From a virus: DNA of 51,691 bases. The stretch covers positions 1-51,691 of IMG/VR virus record IMGVR_UViG_3300033075_001734. One strand, 5' to 3'. The notes below the pieces were generated by a model. That model was not told the origin of the DNA, ran no database searches, and saw only the letters and a program-made list of their open reading frames with translations. Position numbers and translations under genes: made by a program. Below are positions 28 to 50,793 of this stretch, piece after piece. Positions within the stretch are counted from its first letter, which is position 1, and each line of letters opens with the position of its first letter.

Positions 28-3000
28 ATGGCTGAGCAGACATTTAAATCACCAGGATTTTTTGAACGAGAAGTTGATCAATCAGCGCCAAGAACAATTG
101 GTCCTGCTGGAACACCCGCTGGCGTAATTGGTACGTCTAACAAGGGTCCCGCGTTCGTTCCGGTGACAGTTGCAAATTTTGATGAATTCGTTCAAACTTT
201 CGGTAATCTTGATCCAAAGAAATTTGGTCCATATGCCGTTAATGAATTTTTAAAGCATAGAGCTTCACTTACATACTTAAGAGTATTGGGCGCGGGCGCT
301 AATACGACTGATACACATATTGCGACAACACAGGCAACTGGGCGCGTGCAAAATGCAGGTGTATATTTAGATGGAATTTCAGCTGCACATGATTCTCGTG
401 GTAGACATGTAGGTGCTGTACAGTTTATTGTTGCTAGACATCAACTACAAACAAATGAAGCATTTGGTATGCCTATGTTTACTGATAATGCAAGTTATCA
501 AGGTGGATTTGCAAATTTAGTTAGAGGTATGGTTTTAATGGCGTCAGGAGCCCGTATGATGGTTCTTGATGGAAATGAAAGTTCTGTTGGACAATTTTCA
601 GCAACTGGCCCAGATGACGCTGCGACACCCGTAAGTGGTAAGTTTAAACTTGTTATTTCGTCAACGCTCGGAAATGAATTTTCTAATGTTGACAGCACAC
701 CAGGCGTTAAGATTTTTACAGCATCATTAAATCCTTCAAGTTCAGATTACATTGGTAAGATTCTTAATTCAGATCCCGATAAATTTGCTCAAGAACAACA
801 TTTATTTTATGGTGATTTTGCCGTTGATGATGAAGTTGCAACACCTACTGTAGTCGGTATTCTTTCTGGTTCAGCAACAACAAGTACCACATCTGGTGAT
901 ACATCGCTTGTGTTCAGAAAAATGTTCGGCGCATTTGACACTAGATACAAAGCGCCAAAATCATCAATGTTTATTTCGCAACCATTTGGTGCAACAGAAT
1001 ACGACTTGTTCAATATTGAATCACTTGATGATGGTGAATTTGCAAACAAACTGTATAAGATTTCTATCGTTGGGTTAAAGGCGTCTTTAGATGATTCAAA
1101 GCCCTATGGAACATTTACATTGCAAGTTAGAGATTGGAATGATACAGATCAAAATCCAATGGTTTTGGAATCATATCCAAATTGTTCATTAAATCCACAA
1201 GCTGAAAATTATATTGCAAAATTAATTGGTGATAGAAAAGTTTTCTTTAATTTTGATTCTTCTGTTGTTACAGAACGTCGAGTCACTGCAACTGGAAAAT
1301 ATCCAAATGTTTCAAAGCGAATCAGAGTTATTATGTCTGACGCCGCCGACCGAGGATTGGTTCCAGAAAAATCATTGCCTTTCGGATTTAGGGGACTTGA
1401 ATTATTAAAAACAAATGATTCTATGACCGATTCCGGGTCACTAGCAGCTAGAATAGTGGGTGTTCTTGGAGTAAGTTCTGGTTCAGCTCTTAGTGGTTCA
1501 ATACTTCCTCCGATACCTTTCAGATACAAAGTCACAAAAGGTGAAATTCCTACAACATCAGTATTTGATGGTGACCCAGGTCCAACAGAGAGCGTAAATA
1601 CGAGCTTACATTGGGGTATTAAATTTGAAAGAAATACGTTACCTTTGAACGCAAACTTGTCAGCTGATAAAAACCGTTGTTTAGCAGCATATACAAAGTT
1701 CATGGGTATCAAAAAACTTGATGCTCTTTATACTGGTTCTGGTGCTGATACGTTTAACAACAATAAGTTTACGTTAGCAAAAGTTGCATTTTCAAATACA
1801 TCAATTGCGCATCTTACTGGTACAGTAAATGATCATATTAGAGAAGCTGCCTATCTTAGAAACGGTCGTATTGATCAATCTGAATATACGATTGGTAGTA
1901 ATATTGGAAATCGTATTACGTTTGCAACTATTTTAGCAAAAGATACAGCCGCAAACTTTAATAAGTTTTCACAATTCGCCAAGTTCACAAATATGTTACA
2001 TGGTGGATATGATGGTGTTAATTTTCTTGATTCATCTGCTAAGAAATTAAATGATAAATCAACTTCATTTGATACGTCAGGTGCAGCTGAAGCAAATTAT
2101 GTCGCTCCCGGCCTAGTTATTAATCCCAACGGAACTGGTCAAACAAATTCATCTGTTTTGTCATATACGACAGCAGTTGATATCATGACCGATCCAATGG
2201 TGGTGAATATAAACATTCTCGGCATCCCAGGAATACGTGAAACATATATCACTGATTATACACTTACGAAAGTTCGTGACTATGGTTTAGCATACTACAT
2301 TATGGACATTCCATCATATGACGACGGAGGTACAAGATTGTATGATGAGTCAACTACAAGACCTGACGTTGAAAAAACAGTATCTTCGTTTGATTCAAGA
2401 GCAATTGACAACAATTACGCTGGAACTTATTTTCCAAGCGTTACAATTGACGATACGGTAAATAATAGAAAAGTAAAAGTTGCAGCATCAGTCGCAGCAT
2501 TTGGTGCATTAGCGTTTAATGATAGAGTTGCTTATCCTTGGTTCGCCCCAGCAGGATTTAATCGAGCATCATTGGATTTCGTTTCAAATGTTGAAATAAG
2601 ATTGAATGTAAAAGATCGTGATAGACTTTACGAGTCTAGAATTAATCCAATTGCAACATTCCCTAAATTGGGATTTGTAATTTATGGACAGAAAACATTA
2701 CAGATTAACAAATCTGCGCTCGACAGAGTTAATGTAAGAAGACTTCTTTTAGAAGTCAAACGTCAGATTGTTGAAGTTGCACAAAAAATGGCATTTGAAC
2801 AAAATACGCCCGCTGTTAGAAATAAATTTAGAGCTGATTCAGCTTTAAGATTAGGTTTGATTCAAGCACAAGCTGGCATAGAAAAATTTCAAGTTGTATG
2901 TGATGAAAGTAACAATACGGCAGATGATGTTGATCTTAACAGATTGAATGGTAGAATTGTTGTCGTCCCCACCAGAACAATTGAATTTATTGCCATTGAT

Positions 3001-3036
3001 TTTGTTATAACGCGTTCAGGAGTGTCATTCGTTTAA
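28..3036 (+). CDS. Phage tail sheath protein, paralog 1 (1002 aa)
   Basis: The N-terminus (SPGFFEREVD...PAGVIGTS.KG.AFVPV...FGP...YLRVLG) and the C-terminus (YGQKTLQ...LDRVNVRRLL...) are typical of contractile-tail sheath proteins. An AGGAG-like RBS (ataggagca) sits upstream of the ATG at 28. The next gene is a clear paralog. Confidence 0.75.
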   Translation: MAEQTFKSPGFFEREVDQSAPRTIGPAGTPAGVIGTSNKGPAFVPVTVANFDEFVQTFGNLDPKKFGPYAVNEFLKHRASLTYLRVLGAGANTTDTHIATTQATGRVQNAGVYLDGISAAHDSRGRHVGAVQFIVARHQLQTNEAFGMPMFTDNASYQGGFANLVRGMVLMASGARMMVLDGNESSVGQFSATGPDDAATPVSGKFKLVISSTLGNEFSNVDSTPGVKIFTASLNPSSSDYIGKILNSDPDKFAQEQHLFYGDFAVDDEVATPTVVGILSGSATTSTTSGDTSLVFRKMFGAFDTRYKAPKSSMFISQPFGATEYDLFNIESLDDGEFANKLYKISIVGLKASLDDSKPYGTFTLQVRDWNDTDQNPMVLESYPNCSLNPQAENYIAKLIGDRKVFFNFDSSVVTERRVTATGKYPNVSKRIRVIMSDAADRGLVPEKSLPFGFRGLELLKTNDSMTDSGSLAARIVGVLGVSSGSALSGSILPPIPFRYKVTKGEIPTTSVFDGDPGPTESVNTSLHWGIKFERNTLPLNANLSADKNRCLAAYTKFMGIKKLDALYTGSGADTFNNNKFTLAKVAFSNTSIAHLTGTVNDHIREAAYLRNGRIDQSEYTIGSNIGNRITFATILAKDTAANFNKFSQFAKFTNMLHGGYDGVNFLDSSAKKLNDKSTSFDTSGAAEANYVAPGLVINPNGTGQTNSSVLSYTTAVDIMTDPMVVNINILGIPGIRETYITDYTLTKVRDYGLAYYIMDIPSYDDGGTRLYDESTTRPDVEKTVSSFDSRAIDNNYAGTYFPSVTIDDTVNNRKVKVAASVAAFGALAFNDRVAYPWFAPAGFNRASLDFVSNVEIRLNVKDRDRLYESRINPIATFPKLGFVIYGQKTLQINKSALDRVNVRRLLLEVKRQIVEVAQKMAFEQNTPAVRNKFRADSALRLGLIQAQAGIEKFQVVCDESNNTADDVDLNRLNGRIVVVPTRTIEFIAIDFVITRSGVSFV

Positions 3037-3102
3037 TTAACGGATCAATTAATTCACAATGATAGCAATAAACAGAATACTTAGACACAAGGAAAATAGA
3101 CG

Positions 3103-6100
3103 ATGTCACAGTTAAAATTTGGAAGCGCTGGCGTTTCAGCAAGAGAAATTGATTTAACAAGCCCAATTGAACATGAACCGTCAGGTGTTCCTGCTGGTAT
3201 TATTGGAACATCTGTTAAAGGACGTGCATTCGTACCATTGACAATGGGCCTTATTGAAGATTTTTATTCTAAGTTTGGAAAAACTGATGGTAAGAAATTT
3301 GGACCATTGGCAGTAACAGAATGGTTACGTAATGCAGGTTCTGTTACATATTTAAGAGTTCTTGGAGTTGGAAATGGTCTCGAAAGAAATGCTGACGGGT
3401 CAGTAACTTCAGCTGGTTTTACCGTTGGTGAAAATCAGCCAAGATTGAGCGATGGAACTTTATTTGGTAATGAATATGCCACGTCAGGTAGTAACAGTGT
3501 TTCTGGCAGAACGTTCATTTTAGGCGCGTTTATGTCAGAGTCTGCTGGTTCAACTGTATTTTCAGAAGCTGGCATCTTGGGACAGGGAAGTGTTACACCA
3601 ATGACAGTGGGGACAGGTTCAAGTCTCCCGGTTGTTAGGGCGATTTTAATGGCGGCATCAGGCGTTATTTTACGATTATCATCGTCAATTACTTCGTCTA
3701 CGGCACCTGCTTCAACGTTGATAGCAACTGAACAAAGTTCACAAGGTTCGTTATTTGGTGCTGTAACTTTATTAGATGGTACTGTCGCTAAACAAGAATT
3801 TGTGTTACTTTTGAATGGACACAAAGGAACAGATCCTTTATATCCAAACGTAATTACTGCATCATTTGATGTCACATCACCAAGTTATTTTGCGAATGTC
3901 TTAAATACAGATCCGTATAAATATCAACAGGCAGGACATTATCTATACGCTCACTGGGATTTGCACCCAGCAACAACAGTTGTAACCGGTTCGGGATTAT
4001 TGAATATTCTCAGTGGTTCTTCAGCTGCCACGGCCGTTAGATCTGGTGTTGAAATTTCAGCGTTTATTACAACGGGTTCAACTGCACGCAACGTAGGTAG
4101 TGCAACGATTCCTAATTATGAATCTTTTACAGACAGATTTAAATCAGCTAATACGCCGTGGGTTATTTCACAAAGATTTGGTGGTACTGCAACAAATCTA
4201 TTTAGATTACACGCTCTTGACGCTGGTGCTGGAATTTCTGCGAATTACAAATTCTCAATCGAGAACATCACACCTTCCTCAGATCCGGCAAATGAATATG
4301 GCAACTTTGATCTTGTCGTAAGAGATTGGAATGACAGAGATTCAGATCAAATACCGCTTGAACAATTTAGAGGATTAAATCTCGATCCAAGTTCAGATCG
4401 ATATATCTGCAAAGTTATTGGTGATGCTAATATCTTTTATGATTTTGATCAGGTTGTATCAAGTCAAAAATTGATAATTGAAGGAAATTATCCTAACAGA
4501 TCTAACCTTGTTAGAGTCGAAGTTTCTACTGACGTAGAAAACCAAGCAGTTGATGCTACGGCATTGCCATTTGGTGTTAGAGGAATTTCACATCTTATGA
4601 CTTCTGGCACGATGCCAATGACAAGTCCTTCTCATTCACACATGGATGTTGCAGGTGTTCTTAAACGAACAGTACAGGCACCATTGCCGATGAGAAAGAA
4701 TATTACGCAAGGAACTGGTGCTAAGCTGTCTGCAAATCCTCAACTTTATTGGGGAACACAATTTGAACATGTTACAAGTCTCACGACTCCAAACGCCGGG
4801 ACACTTAAAAATAAATCACTTGTAAGTTTTGCGAAATACTTCCCAGATTTTTCTCTTACACAACAAAATGTTGTCGTAGGGGATAATGTAGGAACAGTTG
4901 CAACTGCAGAAAATGGTATCATCGATTCAGACAGATTTAATCTAAATCAGTTTTCACTTGAAAATATACAAGTCGTAACTGCATCATCAGGTCTCGCAGA
5001 TCCAGCTTCTTGGAGTTCAGCAACTTATGTTAGAGACAGTAATATCACAACAAATGAAACTGCAAAAACAAGAAGACTTGCAGTAACTGACTTTACACAA
5101 GCAAATAGAAAGTTTTTGAAGTATACATTCTTTATGCAAGGTGGCTTTAATGGTGTTAATATCTTTGATGCCGATGAAGCAGAAATTACAAATACGGCAG
5201 TTGTTGCTGATATGAATGATGCTAACAGAGGTAGACAAGAAGGTCCGTCAGTTAAGGCGTTCAACAAAGCAATTGAAATTATGAAAAATGTTGTTAACGT
5301 TGATATTCAATTGTTAGCAATCCCCGGTATTCGTCATCCAATCGTTACAAACGCTGCTGATGATGCCGTTAAAGAAAGATTCGATGCACTTTATTTAATG
5401 GATATCGAACAACTTGATAATGCGGGCGCGAACGTAACGTCTGATTCACAATTACCTTCTGTATCTTTAACAGTAAGTAACTTTGCAGGAAGATCTCTTG
5501 ATTCAAGTTTCTCAGCAGCATATTTCCCAGATACACTTATGACAGATCCAACAACAAAGACCAACCTTTTTGTTCCACCTTCTGTTTCAGTTCTTGGAGC
5601 ACTCGCTCTTAACGATTCACTTGGGCATCCGTGGTTCGCACCAGCAGGTTTCACAAGAGGTTCACTACAAACAACACTTGAAGCAAGAGTTCAATTGTCA
5701 AAGACAAACATGGATTCTCTTTATGACAACAATATTAACCCGATTGTTGCATTCCCAGGAAACGCAACATCAGGAACTAATCCTAAAGGTGGTGTAGTTG
5801 TTTGGGGTCAAAAAACACTTCAAGTTGCAGCATCTGCGCTTGACAGAGTAAATGTCAGAAGACTTCTTATTGATGTCAGAAGACAAGTAAGAGACATTGC
5901 ACAAACAATTATTTTCGAACCAAATCGAGAATCAACCCTTGCAAAATTCTCTGCTGCTGTTGAACCAAAACTTGCAAGAATTCAAGCTCTTGCTGGTGTT
6001 GATAAGTACAAAGTTGTTATTGATACTTCAACTACTACACAGGCAGACGTAGAGAACAATACGTTGAGAGGCAAAATTTTCTTGCAGCCAACAAAGACAA

Positions 6101-6150
6101 TTGAATTTGTTTCCCTCGATTTCGTTGTCTCCAACAATATCTCAGGATAA
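3103..6150 (+). CDS. Phage tail sheath protein, paralog 2 (1015 aa)
   Basis: Both sheath motifs match ORF 28..3036 (PAGIIGTSVKGRAFVPLT...FGPLAV...YLRVLG, and C-terminal WGQKTLQ...LDRVNVRRLLIDVRRQ). The RBS is ggaaaataga upstream of the start. Confidence 0.75.
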   Translation: MSQLKFGSAGVSAREIDLTSPIEHEPSGVPAGIIGTSVKGRAFVPLTMGLIEDFYSKFGKTDGKKFGPLAVTEWLRNAGSVTYLRVLGVGNGLERNADGSVTSAGFTVGENQPRLSDGTLFGNEYATSGSNSVSGRTFILGAFMSESAGSTVFSEAGILGQGSVTPMTVGTGSSLPVVRAILMAASGVILRLSSSITSSTAPASTLIATEQSSQGSLFGAVTLLDGTVAKQEFVLLLNGHKGTDPLYPNVITASFDVTSPSYFANVLNTDPYKYQQAGHYLYAHWDLHPATTVVTGSGLLNILSGSSAATAVRSGVEISAFITTGSTARNVGSATIPNYESFTDRFKSANTPWVISQRFGGTATNLFRLHALDAGAGISANYKFSIENITPSSDPANEYGNFDLVVRDWNDRDSDQIPLEQFRGLNLDPSSDRYICKVIGDANIFYDFDQVVSSQKLIIEGNYPNRSNLVRVEVSTDVENQAVDATALPFGVRGISHLMTSGTMPMTSPSHSHMDVAGVLKRTVQAPLPMRKNITQGTGAKLSANPQLYWGTQFEHVTSLTTPNAGTLKNKSLVSFAKYFPDFSLTQQNVVVGDNVGTVATAENGIIDSDRFNLNQFSLENIQVVTASSGLADPASWSSATYVRDSNITTNETAKTRRLAVTDFTQANRKFLKYTFFMQGGFNGVNIFDADEAEITNTAVVADMNDANRGRQEGPSVKAFNKAIEIMKNVVNVDIQLLAIPGIRHPIVTNAADDAVKERFDALYLMDIEQLDNAGANVTSDSQLPSVSLTVSNFAGRSLDSSFSAAYFPDTLMTDPTTKTNLFVPPSVSVLGALALNDSLGHPWFAPAGFTRGSLQTTLEARVQLSKTNMDSLYDNNINPIVAFPGNATSGTNPKGGVVVWGQKTLQVAASALDRVNVRRLLIDVRRQVRDIAQTIIFEPNRESTLAKFSAAVEPKLARIQALAGVDKYKVVIDTSTTTQADVENNTLRGKIFLQPTKTIEFVSLDFVVSNNISG

Positions 6151-6163
6151 TTAGTAAGGTATT

Positions 6164-6958
6164 TTGCTAAAAGTCATCACACCATCTAAACCGGGTGTTT
6201 ATGAAATAAAAAACATAAACACCGGAATGATTTACGTTGGAGCTTCAAAAGATCCACGTAATAGATGGAAAACGCATATCGCAGCGAGCAAAAGAGCAGA
6301 CGATCTAAACAACTATTTTTACAGTTCATTACGAAAACATGGTAGTGATTCTTTTTCTTTCACGATTGTAAAAGAATTTGATACTTCGTTTGAAGCTTTT
6401 GAATATGAAAATATCAGAATGATCGAATTGCGAGAACTAGGATGCACACTTTACAATAAACATCCGGGTGGTAACGGTCATTTTGTAATGTCTAGCAAAA
6501 TGAAATTAGAACGCTCTGAACGTCTTTTAGGTACAAAATTAAGTAAAGAAATAAAAGAGAAAATTTCTAATTCGTTAAAAGGAAGAACTTTAACTGAGGA
6601 ACATAAAGAAAATATTGGAAAAGGTCTTAGTGTTCCTGAAGTAATTTTGAAACGAAGATTAACAAGAAAAAACGTTAAACTAACTAAAAACACAAAAGAG
6701 AAAATTTCAAATTCACTTAAACTTGCATATAAAAACAAAACAAAAATTGCTAAGCACTCTGGTGAGAGTAATCCACGATCAGTTTTAAATGAAAATGATG
6801 TTAAAGAAATCAGAAATTTGTGGAATTCTTTTATTCAAACTTCATCACTAAAACGTGGCGAAAAAGGAAAATATTATACTGAACTAGCAATTAAGTACAA
6901 TGTTTCACCTTCGAATATTTGTCGTTTAATTACAGGTCGTACTTGGAAAAACGTTTAA
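6164..6958 (+). mobile_element. Free-standing GIY-YIG homing endonuclease with NUMOD3-like repeats and C-terminal HTH
   Basis: It has GVYEIKN...GMIYVGAS (the GIY...YIG motif) with a conserved R (RNRWKTH), a Glu (FEYENIRMIEL) and an Asn. It carries two 'EKISNSLKG' NUMOD3-like repeats and a C-terminal IENR/HTH-like region. It is inserted between the sheath and tube genes. Confidence 0.7.
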
Positions 6959-7164
6959 CACAGATTAATCATGGTTCCACACCTATAGACCAATTTTGAC
7001 AGGGCTCTGATTATTCTCGGGCCGTTGTCGTTTAAACTTAAAGGCAAATTTATTAGTTGTTGCCTAGTTATTTGGGAATCAAAATAATAAGCAAAATAAA
7101 CTGAATTTCGTTTATGATTGACTGATATATAATTTATGAAACGATTAACACACGGAGAATTCTC

Positions 7165-7653
7165 ATGGCTGAAACACTAGACGTAACATCAATGATCCCA
7201 AACAATTTCGAATCAAAGCGAAAAAATCGTTTTATTCTTATGATAGAAGGAATTGATGCTTACATCGTCAAAAAAGCAAGTCGTCCAAAGATTTCAACTG
7301 CACCAATTGCAATTGATTTTATGAATGCACAAAGATTCGTCGCGGGCAAAACAACGTTCGGAACAATGTCAGTTTCTCTTCACGAACCAATTGCACCTTC
7401 GGGAGCACAACAGGTTATGGAATGGATTCGTTTACACTACGAATCTGTATCTGGTCGTTCTGGGTATGCTGATTTCTACAAACGTGACATTCAATTAAAA
7501 CTCGTAGATCCAGTCGGAACTGTTGTTGAATTCTGGGATGGAAAAGGCGCCTTAATTACAGAAGCCGATTTCGGTGATTTAGATTATTCAGCAGGTGATC
7601 TTGCTGAAATTAACTTAACAATTCAATGTGACAATTGGGTTCTTCAGTACTAA
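7165..7653 (+). CDS. Putative tail tube protein (162 aa)
   Basis: Its size and its position just downstream of the sheath genes match T4 gp19/P2 FII-type tubes. The RBS is acggagaa. No diagnostic motif could be verified by eye. Confidence 0.45.
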   Translation: MAETLDVTSMIPNNFESKRKNRFILMIEGIDAYIVKKASRPKISTAPIAIDFMNAQRFVAGKTTFGTMSVSLHEPIAPSGAQQVMEWIRLHYESVSGRSGYADFYKRDIQLKLVDPVGTVVEFWDGKGALITEADFGDLDYSAGDLAEINLTIQCDNWVLQY

Positions 7654-7766
7654 TTTAAGAAACGCAAACGTGTGTTTGATTTTGGTCGGAAATAAATTTT
7701 CTGACCATTTCTTTTTGTTTGTAATGAATGTATTGTAGAATTTAACGATATTATGTATTGTAATAT

Positions 7767-8039
7767 ATGAGTTCATTAACAGATCCATCACTTCATCAAA
7801 AAACAATTGATAGAATCGTTTCATATTTTCACAAAGTTGACAGACCTGTTTTGGTTGGAACTATTTCACTTGAGTATAAGTTTAATTTAAGTCAGACAAA
7901 GATTTTTTTTGATTATCTTGAAGATAAAGGAATTATTAGACAAATGACTGATGATGAAAAGAAAGAAAAACACCTTGATAAAAGATGTGATGCGTATATG
8001 TTAACGTCAAAAGCAGACATTAGTAAGGTTATGGGCTGA
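7767..8039 (+). CDS. Hypothetical protein (90 aa)
   Basis: ORF between tube and tape-measure region; possible tail assembly chaperone by position only. Confidence 0.3.
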   Translation: MSSLTDPSLHQKTIDRIVSYFHKVDRPVLVGTISLEYKFNLSQTKIFFDYLEDKGIIRQMTDDEKKEKHLDKRCDAYMLTSKADISKVMG

Positions 8040-8045
8040 TATGTT

Positions 8046-8258
8046 ATGAAACGAAAAGTGTCATTTAATACGCTTCTTTCGTTTCAAGATATGCTTGACA
8101 CTCTTCTCGTTGAAAATAAAATATCGCTGTCATCATATCATCAACGGTGGGTATCGGCGCTTGATAAAATGGGTTATTCAAATAGTGAATATGAACGTCT
8201 TATTGATGAACGCTGGGATATTATCACGAAAATTTTGACTTTAAAAATGTCGAATTAA
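8046..8258 (+). CDS. Hypothetical protein (70 aa)
   Basis: Small ORF tightly spaced after the previous one; its position is chaperone-like. Confidence 0.3.
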   Translation: MKRKVSFNTLLSFQDMLDTLLVENKISLSSYHQRWVSALDKMGYSNSEYERLIDERWDIITKILTLKMSN

Positions 8259-8291
8259 ACATTTACGTCTCAACAAGAGTGATTACAATTC

Positions 8292-9164
8292 TTGTTAGGA
8301 GTAAATATGTCAGAAGAACGAGAACAACGAAATCAGGTTTTTGGTGGTGAACAGCAACGGTCACACGCGGTGATTAATGCTGAAAAAGTTAAAGCAGATT
8401 TCGGGTTAGATATTCCGAATGAAACTGTTCCATTGCCTTCATGTGGCAAAACATATCATCCACAACATCCTTTGCACAAAGCTGAACGCGTTGATATTCG
8501 TGCAATGACAGCTCGTGAAGAAGATATTCTTACGAGTCCCGCCCTTTTGAAAAAGGGTACAGTAATTACTGAGTTAATTCGTTCATGTCTTGTTGATAAA
8601 CAAATTGATCCTGTTGAACTTTTGACCGGCGATAGAAATGCACTTATGGTTGCAATTCGTATTACGGGTTACGGCGCAGAATATGAAACAGAAGTTGAGT
8701 GCGGTGGATGTAACGTAAAATCAAAACAAGTTTTTAATCTTGCTGAATTACCTATTAAGAGCCTTGAACTTGAACCCGTTGAACCGGGAAGCAATTTATT
8801 TGAATTCGTACTCCCTTATTGCAAAAAGAGTGTCAAGTTTAAATTTATGAACGGTCTTGACGAAGAAGAAATAGTTGTTTCAAGTGAACGTCAAAAGAAA
8901 CTTGGAATGCAGGCGTCAACTTCAGTAACAACAAGTTTGATGCATAGCATAGTGTCAATTGACAATGTAACTGATAAATCAAAAATTAATGCTTTCATAA
9001 AGTTAATGCCAGCACGAGATTCTCTTGCTTTAAGAAATTACATTAAAGAAAATGAACCCGGTTTAAGACTCAAACAAGAAAAATCTTGTCCAATGTGTGA
9101 TCACACTGAGGAGGTCAGTATGCCGCTTGGTGCATCGTTTCTTTGGCCTTCGACCGCAGGATAA
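8292..9164 (+). CDS. Hypothetical zinc-ribbon protein (290 aa), possible tail assembly protein
   Basis: The RBS is ttaggagtaaat-ATG. It has two CxxC pairs (ECGGCN ... CPMCDH). Its 3' end overlaps a +1-frame ORF (9097..9417). Confidence 0.4.
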   Translation: MLGVNMSEEREQRNQVFGGEQQRSHAVINAEKVKADFGLDIPNETVPLPSCGKTYHPQHPLHKAERVDIRAMTAREEDILTSPALLKKGTVITELIRSCLVDKQIDPVELLTGDRNALMVAIRITGYGAEYETEVECGGCNVKSKQVFNLAELPIKSLELEPVEPGSNLFEFVLPYCKKSVKFKFMNGLDEEEIVVSSERQKKLGMQASTSVTTSLMHSIVSIDNVTDKSKINAFIKLMPARDSLALRNYIKENEPGLRLKQEKSCPMCDHTEEVSMPLGASFLWPSTAG

Positions 9165-9417
9165 AGAGACACTAATCTTAGAGCCTGCATTTCTTTTAAT
9201 GTATTATGGTGGTTTTACTTGGCGTGAAACCATCCATTTACCCGTTCAATATAAAAGATGGTTCGTTAATCGAATTGTTAAAGAATTGAATAAATCTTCG
9301 GGAGGAGAAGACGGTGGTGGACAGTCTAGAGCTCTTCATCAAAATTCACCCGAAACTCGTTCAATGCAAGGAATGCAAAGAACACAAACACCATCTAGGT
9401 TAAGAAGATTTACATAG
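9097..9417 (+). CDS. Hypothetical protein in +1 frame overlapping the 3' end of 8292..9164 (GTG start, or frameshift/extension product)
   Basis: The ORF is 106 aa and protein-like (ILEPAFLLMYYGGFTWRETIHLPVQYKRWFVNRIVKEL). It overlaps the upstream ORF by 68 nt. Its own start has no obvious SD, which leaves room for a programmed frameshift. Confidence 0.25.
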   Translation: MITLRRSVCRLVHRFFGLRPQDKETLILEPAFLLMYYGGFTWRETIHLPVQYKRWFVNRIVKELNKSSGGEDGGGQSRALHQNSPETRSMQGMQRTQTPSRLRRFT

Positions 9418-9435
9418 TTATTAATAATTACTTTC

Positions 9436-10536
9436 ATGACTTCTTCTTTAAATCTTCTGCGTGAATATCTCAGATTGATTTTGATTTCTGAAGGTAAGGT
9501 CGAAGACCTCGCCAAGCAGAATCCCAATATTCCTGTCATAGATCTCGCTTCTTCAGATTCAACTCCGACAAAAAAGCTTCTTCCGTGGATGGTGAAACAA
9601 GTTTCCAAAGGTGCTGACGTGGAACACGTCAGATCTGTTGCTTCTCGTTTTGCAAAAGATGGTTCTAGACTCAAGAACAAAGACATAAACTCTTATTCTG
9701 AAATTGATGAATTGGAATCTGTGCTTGATGCACTCGGTGCATCAAAGCGTTCAGAAACAATTCAGGCAAAATCAGGTGCAGTTAAGATTTATGAAGACGA
9801 CGCCTGTACTGTTTTAAGAATCGACACAAAAGAAGCTGCACAACAATATGGAAAAGGCACCAAGTGGTGCATCACAATGGAGAAGCAACAACACTATGAA
9901 ATGTATAAAGCTTCAAACGTGTTGTTCTATTACGTTCTGAGAAAAGAACCACTGAGTGATGATCTTGATAAAGTTGCTCTTGCAGTGTCGAGAGATAAAG
10001 ATAACTTTATTCAAAAAATTCAGGCTTTTGATCAAGCTGATAAAGAAATGACGCCTGATGTTGTGAGTGCACAAGCACTCACAACAGTTAAATCCGATGT
10101 CAAGTCTCAACCAAAAGCCTTTCTTGCTAGAATAAAATCAGGTGATAAATACAGTGATGAGGAATTATTTAGCTATTGGGAAAACCTGGGAACAGAACAA
10201 AACAAAATTGCATTTCTGTGTTCTACAGATCTAATCAAAAAAGAAAAACTTCAGAAACTTCTTTCAGTTGAAAATGATGAAGAAATGAAAGAGATTCTTT
10301 CAGATATGATTTCTGGGAAAGCAGAGATTAAATCTGATTATGTTATATGGCGTAATTCAGCAGGACAACTTCATCGAGACAATGATCAGCCTGCAATAAT
10401 TTATTCTGACGGATCAAAAAAATGGTATCAAAATGGAAAACTGAACAGAGACAATGATCAACCTGCAATAATTTTTGCTGACGGATCAAAAAAATGGTAT
10501 CAAAATGGTCTTGAATATGTTCCTAAGAAAAAGTGA
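9436..10536 (+). CDS. Multicopy family protein, copy A (366 aa): N-terminal helical domain, conserved WCIT core, two C-terminal HRDNDQPA/WY-NG repeats
   Basis: It is one of five paralogs (copies A-E; A-D all lie within 9436..24622, E is at 43099..44802). The N-terminus is MTSSLNLLREYLRLILISEGKVEDLAKQNP. The core is SGAVKIYEDDACTVLRIDTKEAAQQYGKGTKWCITM...NVLFYYVLRKEP. The C-terminus carries the repeats QLHRDNDQPAIIYSDGSKKWYQNGKLNRDNDQPAIIFADGSKKWYQNG. Confidence 0.7.
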   Translation: MTSSLNLLREYLRLILISEGKVEDLAKQNPNIPVIDLASSDSTPTKKLLPWMVKQVSKGADVEHVRSVASRFAKDGSRLKNKDINSYSEIDELESVLDALGASKRSETIQAKSGAVKIYEDDACTVLRIDTKEAAQQYGKGTKWCITMEKQQHYEMYKASNVLFYYVLRKEPLSDDLDKVALAVSRDKDNFIQKIQAFDQADKEMTPDVVSAQALTTVKSDVKSQPKAFLARIKSGDKYSDEELFSYWENLGTEQNKIAFLCSTDLIKKEKLQKLLSVENDEEMKEILSDMISGKAEIKSDYVIWRNSAGQLHRDNDQPAIIYSDGSKKWYQNGKLNRDNDQPAIIFADGSKKWYQNGLEYVPKKK

Positions 10537-10586: not shown

Positions 10587-13500
10587 ATGACTATTTCAAA
10601 AGAAGAACTATCTGAGCAACTATTAATTACGCAGAAAATGACGTCTGCTATCGAAATGATGGCAAAGTCAATGTCTAAGATTGAATCTTCTTATGACACA
10701 CAGATTGCCGCAGTTGAAAAATTAACAACTGCAATCGGTAAACTTAAAGGTGAAAACCTTGAAGAACTTGACAAAACAAAGTTCACAAATCTTCAATCTG
10801 AATTTGATAAAACTGAAAAAAATGTAACAAGTTTCTCAGAAAAATTACGTGAAGTTGGAATTAATGTTGGTACGAAGTTTGTTAAACACACGTCTATAGG
10901 CGTTGCTGCATTAAGTGGTTTCGGTAGAGGAATAATCAACATACTTGCATTAGGTAGAAGTACCGCGAGTTTTTTTGCAAGTTTTGTTGATGGCGCTTTA
11001 AGTATTGGCGCCGCGATTATTTCTATTCCATTCAAGATGTTCAATGGGCTTGTTGATATGGCTGCCGCAGCAGGAGGCGGGTCAAATGAGCTCGCGCTGG
11101 CGATTGAACATCTTCGCGACGAGATGGGTAACTTAAAAGAGTCAGGTTCAAAAGCCGTTCTTGATACTGCAAAAACATTTAAAAACTTTGGTGAAACAGG
11201 ACTAAGTGTTTGGCGTGTTTTTGGATCAGTTGCTGAAAGACTTGAAACAGTCATAAAAGTTGCAACTTCAATGGGAGCAACGTTTGGTGTTCTTAAAAAT
11301 GAATTCGTTGAAAACGGTGGTGCCTTATTGGCATATCAAAAAGGTCTTGGTGTTACTGACGAACAAATGAAAGGTCTTGGCGATACGGCACTTATGATGG
11401 GTAAACCAATGTCCCGTATATTTCTTGACATGACCAAACAAACCCTTGCCCTTGGAAAAGCGTTTGATATCGATCAAAAACTTATCGGCAAAGATATGAC
11501 GAAAGCGCTTATCGATGTTGGACATTTTGGTGGCGCTACTGTTAAACAAATTGGTGTTGCGTCTGTTTATGCTCGTAAATTGGGTCTTGAACTTGATAAA
11601 ATCGTTGGAACGCTTGATTCATTTGAAACATTTGATTCTGCCGCTGAAAATGCTGCAAAATTATCACAGGCTTTCGGCGTATCAATTGATGCTTTCAAAA
11701 TGATGGAAGCACAAAGTCCTGCAGATCAACTCGATATGTTGCGAACATCATTTAGAAACGCAGGAGTTGATGCTTCAACATTTTCAAGACAACAATTAAA
11801 ACTACTTTCAACTTCAACCGGGTTGAGCGCCGAAACAGTTAAACAAGCATTTTCAGCAAAAAACTATGGAACTTCACTTGATTCAGTAAACAAAAAAGCA
11901 GATGCAGCCGAAAAGAAAACAATGTCTCAAGCTGAGGCAATGAACCAACTTGCTGACAGCATTAAACGTTTAACGCCTTCGGGAGGATCTCAACTTGGTG
12001 GTTTCTGGGAAACATTTGTTCACGGTTTCATGGGTGGTGTTCAAGCAACAAAAGAATTCCGTGACATAATCTGGAATATTAAAAGAAGTTTAAGAGAAAC
12101 AGAACTTCAAGGCGTCAGATTAGGCCGGGCATTTGTTGCAGCATTTCCTGGTATGAAAGAGTTCTTGGGTGGAATTGGTGATTTCTTTAAACCCGCAAAA
12201 TTTAAATCACTTGCGTCAGGAGTTGTTGATGTTTTTATTAACTTCATGGAAAAGTTAAAAAGTGGTCCTGCGTCTTTTGGTGATCTTATGAAATCACTGC
12301 AAGATCAGTTCTTTAAATTCTTTGATGCATCATCACCAGCTAGTCAAAAAATGATGGAAGGATTTAAGACTGTTTTAAGAACTATTTCAAGTATAGTGTC
12401 GCAAGGTATTGTTTGGGTCTCAACGAAAATTGCTGATGGTGTTGATTTTATATCTGATGTGTTAAGTGGAAATGTTGATTTAGGTAAACTGAGTAATTCT
12501 GGCTCAGAAGGTCTTGGTTTTATTTGGAACATTTTGGAACCCATGATTAAATCACTTGGAAAGGCTTGGGATCTATTATATCCAGCACTTAAGCATCTTT
12601 TTTCAATTGCCCTTACAAAATTATGGACATTCTTAAAATCTGACACAGTAACTGGGCCTTTAAAAGAATATGCACCCCACATTGCCGCTATATTGTTTGG
12701 ACCAGCATTATTACGTGCTCTTATGGCTTCAGGTGGTTGGGCATTAGGAGAAGCAGCAAAAGGCTTATTTTCTAAGGGTTCAAGCATTATGAAAGGCGTT
12801 GCAGATAAAGCCGAGAAAATGAATGAAGCCGGATCTACGCTTAAGAAAGCATCAAAAGGAAGTGATGCAGCTGAAGGAATTTCAAATGCTGCAAAATCTT
12901 CAAAAGCAGCAACTGAACTTGATAAATCTTCAAAATGGGGTGTCGAAGAGGCTGCAAAATTAGGTCTTAAACTTATTGCAATGGCTGGTGCTCTTTCATT
13001 AGGTGGAATAATGATGGCCTATGCGGTTGTTAAAATGTATGACGTGTTAAAATCGGGAGGAATCGTATCGTATAAAGACGCTGCTGCTCCATTATTGGTT
13101 TTGGGAGCAATGGTAACTGCTGCTGTTCCATTAATGTTTGCACTTAAGATTGCAGCAAATGCTGGAAGTCCTAGCGAAGTTGCAAAAGGCGGCGCGCTAA
13201 TTGCTTCAGGATTGTTAATCGTAGGTGGTGTTGGATCAATGCTAACTTATGTTTTGAACCAAGTTGGATCACCTGCAGAATTAAGTGCAGCTGGCAAAAT
13301 GATGGGAATGATGACGCTTGTGTTTCTTGGTATGGTTCCTTTGGTTTTAGGAGCGATGGCCGTCGGCGCAGTCGTTTCTGCTTCGGGTGGAACTGCCCTT
13401 GCGGCGGCAGCAGTTGGTATGGCGACAATGGGAACTGCCGTTGGGGCAGTTGCGACATTGGCGACAGTAATAATTGCTGAACTTAGAGGTATGACAATTG

Positions 13501-14903
13501 AAGCTGGATTTCAGACGAAGATTGATGCATTTTTAAGTATCATGAAAACTATACAGACATTTTCTGATACGCTTGTAAGTCTTGTAAGTTTAATGACACC
13601 ATCAATTGCCGAATTGGTATCAGGAAAAACAAAGACATTTACTGAAAAGGTAAATGCAACCATTGATATGATGAAGGAGATGATTGGTGTTTCAAATACG
13701 GGAACTGGTATCATCGGAATTGTTGAAACTGTTGTAACACAAATTAAGTCATTGTCTTCATATGCCGGAATTGGTGAATCAGCAAAAATCTTTGCTGATG
13801 TTTTAACTGCCGTGTCATCAATTATGCAATACATGACACCTAATCCTGAATTCATGAAAGCGCAAACAAGTTTATTAGGAATTGCAAGCAAACATCTTTT
13901 TGGTGATGATGTTGCAAAGTCAACAACTGATTATGTTAAGTTAATGACTACAACTGTTAAACCGATTATGAACAGTGTAATCGAATCAATGAAAGAACTG
14001 TTGAGTATATCTGTTCCTGATGTTACAAAAGCTCAAGCTCTCGGGAATTTATTAAATACGGTTTCAGGAATTATGAAAGGCATTATGCCTGATCCTGCAT
14101 CATTAAAAGCATTTTCAACAACAGCAAAAGCAGGTATCGGACCGATTGGAACAGAAATAGGTTCACTTGACGCTAGTGGTCTTGCAACGTTTATAGGATC
14201 ATATGCAGAAAAACTTGGAACTTTAATCCCAGCTCTAACGAGTGGAATATTAAACGGGTTAGCGAATAGTGTTGGTTCGTTTGATAAGTCAAAGATTGAA
14301 AGTCTTACAAAGACAGCTGATATATTAACTTCAACGGCAAATTTCATTAAATCAATATCTGACATAAGTAAAATGGACTTTTCAACAAGCAATGAATCAG
14401 AAACTGTAATTCAAAGAATGGTAACATCAATTGATAAAATCATAAGTGAAGAATCAATGAAAGGTATATTTGAAACTTCGGGAAGAATTTCGAAGTACGG
14501 CGTAGCTTTAGGCGCAATTGGAAAAACAATTACGAATAATGGTATAGTTCAAGCCCTCGCCGCCGTGGGAGATATGGTTAAACAAACGCAAATGCTTGAT
14601 GATGCATTAAACGCAGGAACTGAAATTAACGTCGATGCAAAACTTCAGAAACTTGCTCAAGTTACAGGAATTGGTGGAAAGTTTGCGTATACTGTCCAGA
14701 GCAAGGAAGTTGTCATAAATCTTAACATGCAAATTTTCATGGACGTCGCTGAAACAGAAAAAGTTCTTATCATGAACAAAAAATCAATTATTCGTGACAG
14801 ACTTAATTTTGCAACTAATACACCTAATGAAAAAGGACAAAATGTAATTCCTGAAGAGTATCAAAAAATCTTGCCTAATGTTAAACCCGATGGAGCTCCA
14901 TAA
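10587..14903 (+). CDS. Tail tape measure protein (1438 aa)
   Basis: It is very long, with a coiled-coil N-terminus and a central run of Gly/Ala-rich hydrophobic segments (LIAMAGALSLGGIMMAYAVV, MMGMMTLVFLGMVPLVLGAMAVGAVV ...) typical of tape measure proteins. It lies downstream of the chaperone-like region of a contractile-tail module. Confidence 0.65.
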   Translation: MTISKEELSEQLLITQKMTSAIEMMAKSMSKIESSYDTQIAAVEKLTTAIGKLKGENLEELDKTKFTNLQSEFDKTEKNVTSFSEKLREVGINVGTKFVKHTSIGVAALSGFGRGIINILALGRSTASFFASFVDGALSIGAAIISIPFKMFNGLVDMAAAAGGGSNELALAIEHLRDEMGNLKESGSKAVLDTAKTFKNFGETGLSVWRVFGSVAERLETVIKVATSMGATFGVLKNEFVENGGALLAYQKGLGVTDEQMKGLGDTALMMGKPMSRIFLDMTKQTLALGKAFDIDQKLIGKDMTKALIDVGHFGGATVKQIGVASVYARKLGLELDKIVGTLDSFETFDSAAENAAKLSQAFGVSIDAFKMMEAQSPADQLDMLRTSFRNAGVDASTFSRQQLKLLSTSTGLSAETVKQAFSAKNYGTSLDSVNKKADAAEKKTMSQAEAMNQLADSIKRLTPSGGSQLGGFWETFVHGFMGGVQATKEFRDIIWNIKRSLRETELQGVRLGRAFVAAFPGMKEFLGGIGDFFKPAKFKSLASGVVDVFINFMEKLKSGPASFGDLMKSLQDQFFKFFDASSPASQKMMEGFKTVLRTISSIVSQGIVWVSTKIADGVDFISDVLSGNVDLGKLSNSGSEGLGFIWNILEPMIKSLGKAWDLLYPALKHLFSIALTKLWTFLKSDTVTGPLKEYAPHIAAILFGPALLRALMASGGWALGEAAKGLFSKGSSIMKGVADKAEKMNEAGSTLKKASKGSDAAEGISNAAKSSKAATELDKSSKWGVEEAAKLGLKLIAMAGALSLGGIMMAYAVVKMYDVLKSGGIVSYKDAAAPLLVLGAMVTAAVPLMFALKIAANAGSPSEVAKGGALIASGLLIVGGVGSMLTYVLNQVGSPAELSAAGKMMGMMTLVFLGMVPLVLGAMAVGAVVSASGGTALAAAAVGMATMGTAVGAVATLATVIIAELRGMTIEAGFQTKIDAFLSIMKTIQTFSDTLVSLVSLMTPSIAELVSGKTKTFTEKVNATIDMMKEMIGVSNTGTGIIGIVETVVTQIKSLSSYAGIGESAKIFADVLTAVSSIMQYMTPNPEFMKAQTSLLGIASKHLFGDDVAKSTTDYVKLMTTTVKPIMNSVIESMKELLSISVPDVTKAQALGNLLNTVSGIMKGIMPDPASLKAFSTTAKAGIGPIGTEIGSLDASGLATFIGSYAEKLGTLIPALTSGILNGLANSVGSFDKSKIESLTKTADILTSTANFIKSISDISKMDFSTSNESETVIQRMVTSIDKIISEESMKGIFETSGRISKYGVALGAIGKTITNNGIVQALAAVGDMVKQTQMLDDALNAGTEINVDAKLQKLAQVTGIGGKFAYTVQSKEVVINLNMQIFMDVAETEKVLIMNKKSIIRDRLNFATNTPNEKGQNVIPEEYQKILPNVKPDGAP

Positions 14904-14911
14904 TTACTTTC

Positions 14912-16090
14912 ATGACTTCTTCTTTAAATCTTCTTCAAGAATATCTCAGATTGATTTTGATTTCTGAAGGCAAGGTCGAAGACCTTGCTAAACAGAATCC
15001 CAATGTTCCTGTCATAGATCTCGCTTCTTCAGATTTAACTCCGACAAAAAAGCTTCTTCCGTGGATGGTGAAACAAGTTTCCAAAGGTGCTGACGTGGAA
15101 CACGTCAGATCTGTTGCTTCTCGTTTTGCAAAAGATGGTTCTAGACTCAAGAACAAAGACATAAACTCTTATTCTGAAATTGATGAATTGGAATCTGCGC
15201 TTGATTCTTTGGGAGCGTCAAAACGCTCTCAGGAAATTCAGGCAAAATCAGGTGCAGTTAAGATCTATGAAGACGACGCATGCGTCGTCTTAAGAATTGA
15301 CACAAAAGAAGCTGCTCAACAGTATGGAAAAGGCACCAAGTGGTGCATCACAATGGGGAGGCAACAACACTATGAAGAGTACAAAGCTTCAAACGTGTTG
15401 TTCTATTACGTTCTGAGAAAAGAACCACTGAGTGATGATCTTGACAAAGTTGCTCTTGCAGTAATGAGAGATGAAAAAAACGTTGTGAAACAAGTTCAGG
15501 CTTTTAATCAAGCTGATAAAAAAATGACACCTGAAAATGCGAGTGTGAGTGCACAAGCACTCACAGCAGTTAAATCAGATGTCAAGTCTCAACCAAAAGC
15601 CTTTCTTGCTAGAATAAAGTCGGGTGATAAATACAGTGATGAGGAATTGTTTAGCTATTGGGAAAACCTGGGAACAGAACAGAACAAACTTTCATTTCTG
15701 TGTTCTGAACAGTTAAACGAAAAAGATACGCTTCGAAAACTTCTTCAGGTTGAATCTGACAAAAAAATGAAAGAAATTCTTTCAGATATGATTTCTGGGA
15801 AAGCAGTTTCTTTTTATGATGGAATTAAATGGAAAAATAAAAACGGTCAACTACACAGAGACAATGATCAACCTGCAGTGATTTATTCTGACGGATCAAA
15901 AGTTTGGTATCAAAATGGTCAACGTCATCGAGACAATGATAAGCCTGCAATGATTTATGCTGATGGATCAAAAGAATGGTATCGAAATGATCTACTTCAT
16001 CGAGATAATGATCAACCTGCAGTGATTTATGATGATGGAACAAAAGAATGGTATCGAAATGGTCTTAAATACGTTCCTAAGAAAAAATGA
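14912..16090 (+). CDS. Multicopy family protein, copy B (392 aa), four C-terminal repeats
   Basis: It has the same N-terminal and core sequence as copy A, with four HRDNDxPA...WY.NG repeats. Its ATG is 8 nt after the tape-measure stop, within the shared 'TAATTACTTTC-ATG' junction. Confidence 0.7.
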   Translation: MTSSLNLLQEYLRLILISEGKVEDLAKQNPNVPVIDLASSDLTPTKKLLPWMVKQVSKGADVEHVRSVASRFAKDGSRLKNKDINSYSEIDELESALDSLGASKRSQEIQAKSGAVKIYEDDACVVLRIDTKEAAQQYGKGTKWCITMGRQQHYEEYKASNVLFYYVLRKEPLSDDLDKVALAVMRDEKNVVKQVQAFNQADKKMTPENASVSAQALTAVKSDVKSQPKAFLARIKSGDKYSDEELFSYWENLGTEQNKLSFLCSEQLNEKDTLRKLLQVESDKKMKEILSDMISGKAVSFYDGIKWKNKNGQLHRDNDQPAVIYSDGSKVWYQNGQRHRDNDKPAMIYADGSKEWYRNDLLHRDNDQPAVIYDDGTKEWYRNGLKYVPKKK

Positions 16091-19509: not shown

Positions 19510-20691
19510 ATGACTTCATCTTTAAATCTTCTTCAAGAATATCTCAGATTGATTTTGATTTCTGAAGGTAAGGTCGAAGACCTCGCCAAGCAGAATCCCA
19601 ATATTCCTGTCATAGATCTCGCTTCTTCAGATTCAACTCCGACAAAAAAGCTTCTTCCGTGGATGGTGAAACAAGTTTCCAAAGGTGCTGACGTGGAACA
19701 CGTCAGATCTGTTGCTTCTCGTTTTGCAAAAGATGGTTCTAGACTCAAGAACAAAGACATAAACTCTTATTCTGAAATTGATGAATTGGAATCTGCGCTT
19801 GATTCTTTGGGAGCGTCAAAACGCTCTCAGGAAATTCAGGCAAAATCGGGTGCAGTTAAGATCTATGAAGACGACGCATGCGTCGTCTTAAGAATCGATA
19901 CAAAAGAAGCTGCACAACAGTATGGAAAAGGCACCAAGTGGTGCATCACAATGAGCGAAGAACAACACTATGAAGAGTACAAAGCTTCAAACGTATTATT
20001 CTATTACGTTCTGAGAAAAGAACCTTTAGGAAATAATCTTGACAAAGTTGCTCTTGTTATGATGAGAGATGAAAATAATTCTGTTCAACAGATTCAAGCT
20101 TTTGATCAGGCTGATGAAGAAATGACACCCAAAAAAGCAGGGGTAAGTGCACAAGCACTCACAGCAGTTAAATCAGATGTCAAGTTTCAACCAAAAGCCT
20201 TTCTCACTAAAATAAAGTCGGGTGATAAATACAGTGATGAGGAACTCATCACATATTGGTCACAACTAGGAACTGAAAAAGATAAACTTGTATTTCTGTG
20301 TTCTGAACAGTTAAACGAAAAAGATACGCTTCGAAAACTTCTTCAGGTTGAATCTGAAAAAAAAATGAAAGAAATTCTTTCAGATTTGATTTCTGGGAAA
20401 GCAGTTTCTTTTTATGATGGAATTAAATGGAAAAATTCAGCAGAACAACTTCACAGAGACGATGATCAACCTGCAGCGATTTATGTTGACGGATCAAAAG
20501 AATGGTATCGAAATGGTCAACGTCACAGAGATAATGATCAACCTGCAGTGATTTATGTTGATGGAACAAAATATTGGTATCGAAATGATCTACTTCATCG
20601 AGATAATGATCAACCTGCAATAATTTATAGCGACGGAATAAAACGTTGGTATAAAAATGGTCTTGAATACGTTCCTAAGGGAAATAAATGA
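19510..20691 (+). CDS. Multicopy family protein, copy C (393 aa), four C-terminal repeats
   Basis: It shares a 259-nt tract that is 100% identical with copy A (19537..19795 vs 9463..9721). Its 3' half is near-identical to copy B. Confidence 0.7.
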   Translation: MTSSLNLLQEYLRLILISEGKVEDLAKQNPNIPVIDLASSDSTPTKKLLPWMVKQVSKGADVEHVRSVASRFAKDGSRLKNKDINSYSEIDELESALDSLGASKRSQEIQAKSGAVKIYEDDACVVLRIDTKEAAQQYGKGTKWCITMSEEQHYEEYKASNVLFYYVLRKEPLGNNLDKVALVMMRDENNSVQQIQAFDQADEEMTPKKAGVSAQALTAVKSDVKFQPKAFLTKIKSGDKYSDEELITYWSQLGTEKDKLVFLCSEQLNEKDTLRKLLQVESEKKMKEILSDLISGKAVSFYDGIKWKNSAEQLHRDDDQPAAIYVDGSKEWYRNGQRHRDNDQPAVIYVDGTKYWYRNDLLHRDNDQPAIIYSDGIKRWYKNGLEYVPKGNK

Positions 20692-50259: not shown

Positions 50260-50793
50260 ATGATGAAACGTGCTCTTCTACTGAATTCTGATTATTCACC
50301 TTTGCATTTTATTAGTGATATCGATGCGATAACGCTTTTTTACAAAGGTCGTGCAGAAGTTGTGTGTGGTATTGATGGTGATTTGTCTGAATGGGACGAA
50401 GTGTATTCATCACCATCGACGAGCATCAGAGTTCCTGCAACAATGCGTGTTATAAAAAGAGTAAATCGTAAATGGAGACAACCTCGTTTTCGCAAGCGTG
50501 TTCTTTTTAATCGAGACAATTGGAAGTGTCAATATTGCAATGCAGTTCTTGTTGCGAAAACAGTAACGATTGAACATGTTTTTCCAAGGTCACGAGGTGG
50601 TACCAACTCTTGGACGAATTGTGTTACAGCATGTAAACCGTGTAATAGGAAAAAAGGCAACAGGACTCCTGAAGAAGCAGGAATGAAATTGTTGTCAAAG
50701 CCAGTTACACCTTCTGCGATGGATTTTTGGGATGCGATGAAATCCAATGTTTGGCACAAAGACTGGGATCTTTTTTTGCAAAAAAATCATTGA
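50260..50793 (+). CDS. HNH endonuclease
   Basis: The HNH motif is CQYCNAVLVAKTVTIEHVFPRSRGGTNSWTNCVTACKPCNRKKGNR. Confidence 0.8.
   Translation: MMKRALLLNSDYSPLHFISDIDAITLFYKGRAEVVCGIDGDLSEWDEVYSSPSTSIRVPATMRVIKRVNRKWRQPRFRKRVLFNRDNWKCQYCNAVLVAKTVTIEHVFPRSRGGTNSWTNCVTACKPCNRKKGNRTPEEAGMKLLSKPVTPSAMDFWDAMKSNVWHKDWDLFLQKNH

Follow-up and report, generated by a model that had tools for sequence, protein, structure and literature searches.

We analyzed a 51,691-nucleotide (nt) stretch of viral DNA (IMG/VR record IMGVR_UViG_3300033075_001734, positions 1 to 51,691; hereafter "the window") that carries two tail sheath genes in tandem near its start. Sheath paralog A (positions 28..3036, + strand, 1002 amino acids (aa)) is followed on the same strand by sheath paralog B (3103..6150, 1015 aa); both open reading frames (ORFs) begin with ATG, and 66 nt (3037..3102) separate them. 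Comparison with related contigs indicates that the pair arose in a single, ancient tandem duplication of a ~1000-aa gene of the type of gp18, the sheath protein of phage T4, and that this duplication became fixed at the base of a large, uncultured clade of jumbo phages. From the sequences, and by analogy with known particles, we consider it probable that A and B are both abundant subunits of one obligate two-component (hetero-polymeric) sheath surrounding a tube made of a single protein.

An earlier note on this DNA had described A and B as two tandem, full-length sheath paralogs, and this description was borne out. The two proteins could be aligned from end to end (BLASTP, 32% identity over the full length, E 1e-156), and each matched PHROG 23, "tail sheath" (A, E 1.6e-54; B, E 1.9e-48). 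The sheath C-terminal domain of Pfam (PF17482) was found in A with 29.7 bits, above the cutoff of 26.9, and in B with a score slightly below that cutoff (25.5 bits, E 1.4e-5). A phmmer search of the PDB with B returned the sheaths of phage KP1 (E 2e-25) and T4 (gp18, E 3.8e-24), and a profile made from A and B together reached T4 gp18 at E 6e-39. The core motif (F/L)DR(I/V)NVRRL (hereafter DRVNVRRL) is common to A, B and gp18. The earlier note had also described the pair as conserved at the termini and diverged internally, which is broadly so (50% identity over residues 1–92 and 44% over residues 755–1002, versus 25–28% in most of the remaining interior), except that one internal block, residues 322–470 of A, is 37% identical.

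AlphaFold2 models of the single chains, built from family alignments, gave a similar picture (A, predicted local distance difference test (pLDDT) 83.3 and predicted template modeling score (pTM) 0.79; B, pLDDT 81.1 and pTM 0.77). The secondary-structure elements follow in the same order in both models. When these were compared with the PDB using Foldseek, the T4 and KP1 sheaths ranked at the top for A (E 2.5e-16, probability 1.00), and T4 gp18 ranked first for B (E 1.1e-16, probability 1.00), with the sheath of KP1, a Klebsiella phage, also among the leading matches. For both paralogs, the sheaths of extracellular contractile injection systems (eCIS), pyocins and other phages came after those of T4 and KP1. 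Sequences and models together identify A and B as T4 gp18-type sheath proteins with a predicted gp18-like fold. Residues 1–22, the N-terminal arm, were disordered in both monomer models, as is expected for an arm; in gp18-type sheaths, N- and C-terminal arms form a "handshake" by exchange of beta-strands between neighboring subunits. The N-terminal segments are conserved in both families, F6, S8, E15, D17 and S19 being invariant or nearly so, and the C-terminal strands are conserved as well.

Homologs of A and of B each number in the thousands in metagenomic data, in which orthologs that are 63–100% identical lie on contigs of up to 357 kb. Sheath homologs as a whole comprised 8570 representatives. 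Genes identical to those of the window were present in the samples JGI 3300045313, 3300045332 and 3300045372 and SRR32548948. The clade comprises dozens of clusters at 50% identity, from soil, groundwater, freshwater and sea samples. Hidden Markov models (HMMs) of the two families were applied to the 150 best cluster representatives (50% identity), whose scores were bimodal, with an A-type and a B-type mode, plus an ambiguous set. Viral contigs around A-type genes and around deep-branching homologs were collected, and each of their ORFs was scored. Public viral contigs yielded 109 distinct A-type genes, down to ~38% identity, 95 of which had at least 1 kb of downstream DNA. In all 95, a B-type gene followed on the same strand, always in the order A then B, and the median gap between the two (stop-to-stop) was 59 nt. 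The pairing persists where the protein in the A position is ~38–45% identical to A of the window (loci L121, L163 and L165–L196). Nine pairs were found to be >500 nt apart, with homing endonucleases of the GIY-YIG or NUMOD type encoded in several of the inserts. The low identity of A and B, their separate clades and these 95 tandems refute the suggestion in the earlier note that the duplication might be recent.

The statement in the earlier note that most contractile-tail phages carry one sheath gene is consistent with the phage records, of which 2682 matched at only 2745 places, so that at most ~2% of them have more than one. Among related lineages with a single copy, Microcystis phage Mel-JY01 has one 812-aa sheath with the tube gene directly after it. 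Approximately 20 viral contigs have a single sheath of ~980–995 aa, which the A and B models score equally. In a neighbor-joining tree (84 taxa, 768 columns, 100 bootstraps) rooted with the sheaths of the Pseudomonas jumbo phage PaBG as the outgroup, the A core clade had 96% support, the B core clade 69%, and A and B together 57%; the joint group was nested among single-copy, Mel-JY01-like sequences. The tree placed two basal proteins (P0265 and P0274) on the B side, a placement overturned by synteny, which has each of them in the A position with its own B partner. As the tree misplaced these two proteins, we relied on it only at strong nodes, namely the A core clade and the position of a third copy inside B (98%; see below).

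Two further sheath pairs had ambiguous A/B scores. The uncultured phage LR756508.1 (locus L007) encodes two 824-aa sheaths (8029–10503 and 11518–13992) that are 29% identical and 1 kb apart, and an IMG/VR contig (L093) encodes sheaths of 1213 and 1008 aa (49–3687 and 4942–7965) that are 1.25 kb apart. These pairs may represent further, independent sheath duplications.

Both genes of the pair are under strong purifying selection of equal strength. In 51 A/B pairs that were matched by equal size of contigs, the mean pairwise identity was 0.697 for A and 0.696 for B (Pearson r 0.90, slope 1.00). For 41 truly syntenic pairs, nonsynonymous divergence (dN) in A and in B was correlated with r = 0.947 and a slope of 1.10. 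The ratio of nonsynonymous to synonymous change (omega) between close pairs was 0.03–0.08 in A and B alike, and this value, ~0.05 in both genes, excludes the pseudogene that the earlier note had named as grounds for refutation. Gene conversion was considered as a source of the conserved termini and rejected, as A–B identity was the same within genomes as between genomes in the N-terminal, middle and C-terminal segments.

Each family also has conserved residues of its own. In a joint alignment, 442 columns of A and 466 of B were at least 90% conserved; 191 of these agree between the families in their residue, whereas at 73 each family has a conserved residue of its own. The conserved-but-different columns are spread over all regions, including the core, and core regions are the most conserved parts of A and B alike. 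At the start of the N-terminal arm, the A family has "TFRSP" where the B family has "KFGSAGV", and further family-specific invariants are "DRD" versus "NMD" and "ETNN" versus "SSTTTQ" (A and B, respectively). A conserved loop, PGnAt.sGtNPKGG, is found in B only (residues ~885–897 of B, window positions 5755–5793); it is located in the core domain, just N-terminal to a GQKTLQ motif that both paralogs share. The loop had low confidence in the AlphaFold2 monomer, as would be expected for an interface element, and is a candidate for a paralog-specific assembly contact.

In a sub-clade, a third tandem sheath paralog of ~1020–1050 aa is located 3' of B. It was found in 11 of the first 80 loci, which represent six distinct lineages (L022, L023, L029, L033–L035, L037 and L042–L045; e.g., L035:14292–17429 and L043:14363–17425). 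B of the window, the B copies of these lineages and their third copies formed a group with 98% support in the neighbor-joining tree, and the third copies were sisters to their own B at 74%, which indicates that the third copy was derived from B. Between two three-copy lineages, copies 1, 2 and 3 were 76.9%, 73.3% and 49.5% identical, respectively; by this comparison the third copy evolves approximately twice as fast as the other two. Sheath duplicates therefore do not all evolve slowly and at equal rates, as A and B do. In one lineage, the third copy has a changed N-terminal arm motif.

The two families differ in length as well. Lengths above 1100 aa were found in 38 of 67 B-type and 5 of 31 A-type near-full-length representatives, a contrast that is suggestive only, as the ranking used A as the query and the sampling was biased. 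B-type proteins reach 1655 aa, and long examples among P0285–P0390 are P0306 (1655 aa), P0341 (1622 aa) and P0293 (1507 aa). Their insertions are large and lineage-specific and are found in the poorly conserved N-terminal third. Pfam searches with the insertions of long A- and B-type homologs gave no informative match. A weak pectate-lyase-like match was found in P0244, an A-type protein with a length of 1488 aa.

In the sheaths of T4 (gp18), pyocins and eCIS, the core domain and the terminal arms tie the subunits to the tube and to each other. The arm, C-terminal domain IV and DRVNVRRL are all present in both A and B, and since both retain the core domain and terminal arms, both would be lattice subunits. 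The paralog-specific invariants in the core suggest that each protein occupies its own fixed positions in the lattice and that the two are not mixed at random. We hypothesize that A and B form alternating hexameric layers, which is the most likely arrangement by analogy with the sheath proteins Pvc2 and Pvc3 of a Photorhabdus eCIS particle; alternation within each ring (A3B3) is the other possible arrangement. In alternating layers, every strand-exchange contact between layers would be a contact between A and B, each protein would be useless without the other, and the strict co-retention of the genes would be explained. B, the copy that gains large peripheral insertions in many lineages, would probably serve as a surface platform for fiber docking or adhesion, while A would remain compact.

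The closest known parallel in a phage is PaBG (genus Baikalvirus), whose two-component sheath of gp76 and gp213 was reported by Kurochkina et al. in 2018 (as cited in PMC7412058) and was called "unique" at that time. PaBG, too, is a jumbo myovirus in which duplication has produced two full-length sheath paralogs; its pair is 38–39% identical, and both proteins were observed as virion protein bands (PMC7412058). The PaBG proteins, of 528 and 547 aa, can be aligned with A and B over no more than the C-terminal ~280 aa of the latter (~28% identity), and their genes are ~118 kb apart, whereas A and B are in tandem. PaBG also has two adjacent genes annotated "putative tail tube protein" (gp74 and gp75) beside gp76 (locus L089, KF147891, 662–1732), whereas the window has one tube gene. 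The A/B pair is T4 gp18-like, ~1000 aa per protein, and has been kept across a far larger, uncultured clade. The short and weak match, the distance between the PaBG genes, and the dating of the duplication in PaBG to a time later than its divergence from Mieseafarmvirus (PMC7412058) all indicate that A and B did not come from the duplication that produced gp76 and gp213, but have an independent origin.

Bacterial eCIS offer a second parallel, as the Photorhabdus (Pvc2/Pvc3/Pvc4) and Serratia (Afp2/Afp3/Afp4) systems have tandem sheath paralogs beside a tube gene, and three copies are also found in one of our sub-clades. The sheath of PlPVC1 consists of alternating layers of Pvc2 and Pvc3, and an extra knob on Pvc3 docks the fibers (PMC12546770), a specialization of one paralog that resembles the insertions gained by B-type proteins. 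However, eCIS are bacterial phage-tail-like particles with sheath proteins of 350–450 aa, whereas A and B, with ~1000 aa, most closely resemble T4 gp18. The window carries replication genes, and its relatives carry neck genes like those for T4 gp13 and gp15, which mark a true phage and not an eCIS or tailocin locus. T4 itself provides the closest solved structure and the closest sequence (gp18, a single 659-aa sheath protein), and the tube and hub genes of the window are also T4-type. T4 differs in having a single sheath gene, whereas A and B form an obligate pair whose members exceed gp18 by ~350 aa and have extra or enlarged outer domains. In the type VI secretion system, the sheath is also made of two different polypeptides in fixed stoichiometry, TssB and TssC (VipA and VipB), but these are not paralogs and form two halves of one sheath protomer, whereas A is a complete sheath protein by itself, and so is B.

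The earlier note had offered a heteromeric sheath, a sheath with a sheath-like terminator or decoration, and a recent duplication as explanations for the pair. The first of these is the best supported by what we infer from the comparisons above, and the second is disfavored by the full gp18-like architecture of both proteins (arm, C-terminal domain, DRVNVRRL), their equal rates, and a gp15-like gene located 5' of the sheath pair in relatives. Of the rival readings, the one that we take most seriously, though we regard it as unlikely, is that one paralog makes nearly the whole sheath and the other contributes only a single ring or a small number of rings, at the end that faces the baseplate or the neck, as an initiator or adaptor like Pvc4 or Afp4. 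There is precedent for this in eCIS, in which Pvc4 forms an initiator ring with a sheath fold (PMC12546770) and PDB entries for the antifeeding prophage (AFP) and the Photorhabdus virulence cassette (PVC) contain three sheath paralogs. In addition, the Shine-Dalgarno sequence is slightly stronger in A than in B, and the private conserved core loop of B could touch a baseplate or neck protein. However, A and B are equal in length, in their set of outer domains and in evolutionary rate, and T4-type tails already have an initiator of the gp25 type and a terminator of the gp15 type. The faster third copy of the sub-clades is what looks like the accessory subunit. It is a good deal less probable that one paralog lies outside the sheath lattice and decorates a single-protein sheath externally, adds a second layer to it or carries tail "hairs" on it as a scaffold. 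Large peripheral insertions are frequent in B-type proteins, and relatives of PaBG have been described as "hairy" myoviruses (PMC7909554), yet both paralogs keep the inner core (DRVNVRRL shared with gp18, GQKTLQ and REIDLS of the N-terminal arm), which an external decoration would not need, and the core is the most conserved part of both.

Use of A or B as alternative sheaths, one or the other in each virion as functional variants for different conditions, seems very improbable. We found no evidence in its favor, although co-transcription in one operon would be compatible with a regulated choice between them. The sheath does not touch the host receptor, and strict co-retention, correlated divergence (r 0.95) and family-specific core invariants argue for mutual dependence and not interchangeability. 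Tandem duplicates are frequently short-lived, but that either copy is a redundant duplicate or a decaying pseudogene has next to no likelihood given intact ORFs in 95 of 95 lineages, omega of ~0.05, more than 460 B columns that are at least 90% conserved, and an A–B identity of 32%.

Several points weigh against an obligate two-component sheath. A and B are known from genes alone, and the structure predictions cover monomers. Charge complementarity between A and B was sought and not found, both proteins being acidic and both cores approximately neutral. The predicted duplex energy with the anti-Shine-Dalgarno sequence (median over 41 relatives) was −8.0 kcal/mol for A and −6.5 kcal/mol for B, a somewhat stronger signal for A. 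Equal evolutionary rate alone is no proof of equal abundance, as a constrained specialized ring of six copies could also evolve in this manner. Support for A and B as a joint clade was moderate (57%), and the length contrast between the families is open to the sampling bias noted above. The more elaborate proposal, of a large clade of globally distributed T4-like jumbo phages with an obligate alternating A/B sheath that arose independently of PaBG and eCIS, in which heterotypic strand exchange makes the paralogs co-dependent and B, joined in some lineages by the third copy, serves as an evolvable platform on which lineage-specific surface domains are displayed, is one that we put forward tentatively, with somewhat less than even confidence in the whole.

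The usual description of a contractile sheath is that of a polymer of one protein, to which PaBG and the eCIS particles are the known exceptions. Sheaths built from paralogs are thus already known, and what is new here is the independent origin, the different architecture, the much wider distribution and the triples. Our literature searches found nothing on tandem pairs of ~1000-aa T4-type sheaths. The A/B pair suggests at least one further case in which a sheath gene was duplicated and the copies came to depend permanently on each other; if so, the two-sheath state is the rule in a very large clade of uncultured jumbo phages. The >95 independent pairs and the triples provide a natural test case for the tolerance of a contractile lattice to two subunit types, and bear on how paralogs become mutually dependent and how phages add surface domains to their tails. 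They are also of relevance to the engineering of PVC-like delivery devices. In annotation pipelines and in sheath-based phylogenies, A and B need separate orthologous groups.

The layout of the region is consistent with joint expression of the two genes. An AGGAG Shine-Dalgarno motif is located 7 nt 5' of the ATG of A (its sequence was taken from the identical relative L001), and an AAGGA Shine-Dalgarno-like motif within the A–B spacer is located ~9 nt 5' of the ATG of B. The two motifs are similar in strength. A terminator scan of the 66-nt spacer found no terminator-like hairpin, and A and B are likely co-transcribed. A promoter scan gave match counts that were not above those of shuffled sequence and was not used. 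The gp19-like tail tube gene (7165..7653, + strand, 162 aa; phrog_4542, E 9e-25; PF06841, E 1.3e-5) is 1 kb 3' of the sheath pair and is followed by a T4-type baseplate hub gene (8292..9164, identified by Pfam and PHROG profile matches), which gives the sheath genes the position expected of them in a tail module. A phmmer search of all window ORFs with the tube protein returned only the tube protein itself, and hence no second tube paralog in the window. Downstream of the tube gene, a terminator-like hairpin with a T-run (7683..7707, + strand; stem of 10 bp, then TTTCTTTTTG) is a possible end point of the transcription unit that includes the sheath and tube genes, although it was identified solely by its match to a consensus.

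Between B and the tube gene is a GIY-YIG homing endonuclease gene (6164..6958, + strand; PF01541, E 2.9e-11; phrog_314, E 3e-34). It is a mobile intruder and does not belong to the sheath system; at the same position, it is missing in the relative L005, and L004 has a 243-aa version instead. Homing endonucleases have a hotspot in the sheath-tube region, both in the window and in its relatives; inserted ORFs of the GIY-YIG/NUMOD and DUF723 zinc-finger types were found in the A–B gaps of L021, L050, L052, L055, L066, L155, L166, L170, L181 and L186.

The window derives from an uncultured lineage of T4-like jumbo phages. This assignment draws on the matches and gene content given below and on the gene order in a 357-kb relative, which runs from a gp13-like gene through an ORF without a family match, a gp15-like gene, A, B and small ORFs to the tube and hub genes. 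Genes like those for gp13 and gp15 are located 5' of the sheath pair in L005, and relatives with these T4-type neck genes are viral contigs of 100–357 kb. No near-identical DNA was found in GenBank phages, and in protein comparisons no phage record reached 80% coverage of A; the best matches among phage records were the 484-kb LR756508 and Mel-JY01. Elsewhere in the window are genes for a RecA/UvsX-like recombinase, a DnaB-like helicase, ribonucleotide reductase, ThyA, polynucleotide kinase, a piece of a DNA polymerase and several homing endonucleases. The recombinase of the window has no close cultured relative. Three clade contigs (L118, JBAYGC010000019.1; L119, PBIO01000013.1; L120, NHDW01000006.1) and one protein (P0164, MFA6573604.1) had been deposited within bacterial metagenome-assembled genomes (MAGs). 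Their placement there is probably a binning artifact and not evidence of a host, and a host inference from GTDB was rejected, as the labels Patescibacteria, Halobacteriovorax and Methylococcaceae came from mis-binned MAGs and were uninformative.

Downstream of the baseplate hub gene, the window contains five paralogs of a ~370-aa module (9436–10536, 14912–16090, 19510–20691, 23564–24622 and the N-terminal part of 43099–44802) that are 45–87% identical to one another. Their sole match was PHROG 17056, to which no function is assigned in that database. The first four modules are separated from one another by giant ORFs (1438, 1015 and 959 aa) without family matches, and Pfam searches with these ORFs and with the repeated ~370-aa ORFs gave no informative match. 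The modules and giant ORFs may represent a repeated fiber or adaptor cassette. A 403-aa ORF (24651–25862) matches only the C-terminal part of DNA polymerase profiles (phrog_17, 965–1198 of 1445), which may reflect a split polymerase. The genome has many endonucleases, and two more homing endonuclease genes of the window are one (27825–28781) that overlaps the RecA/UvsX-like gene at its start and one of the HNH type (50260–50793).

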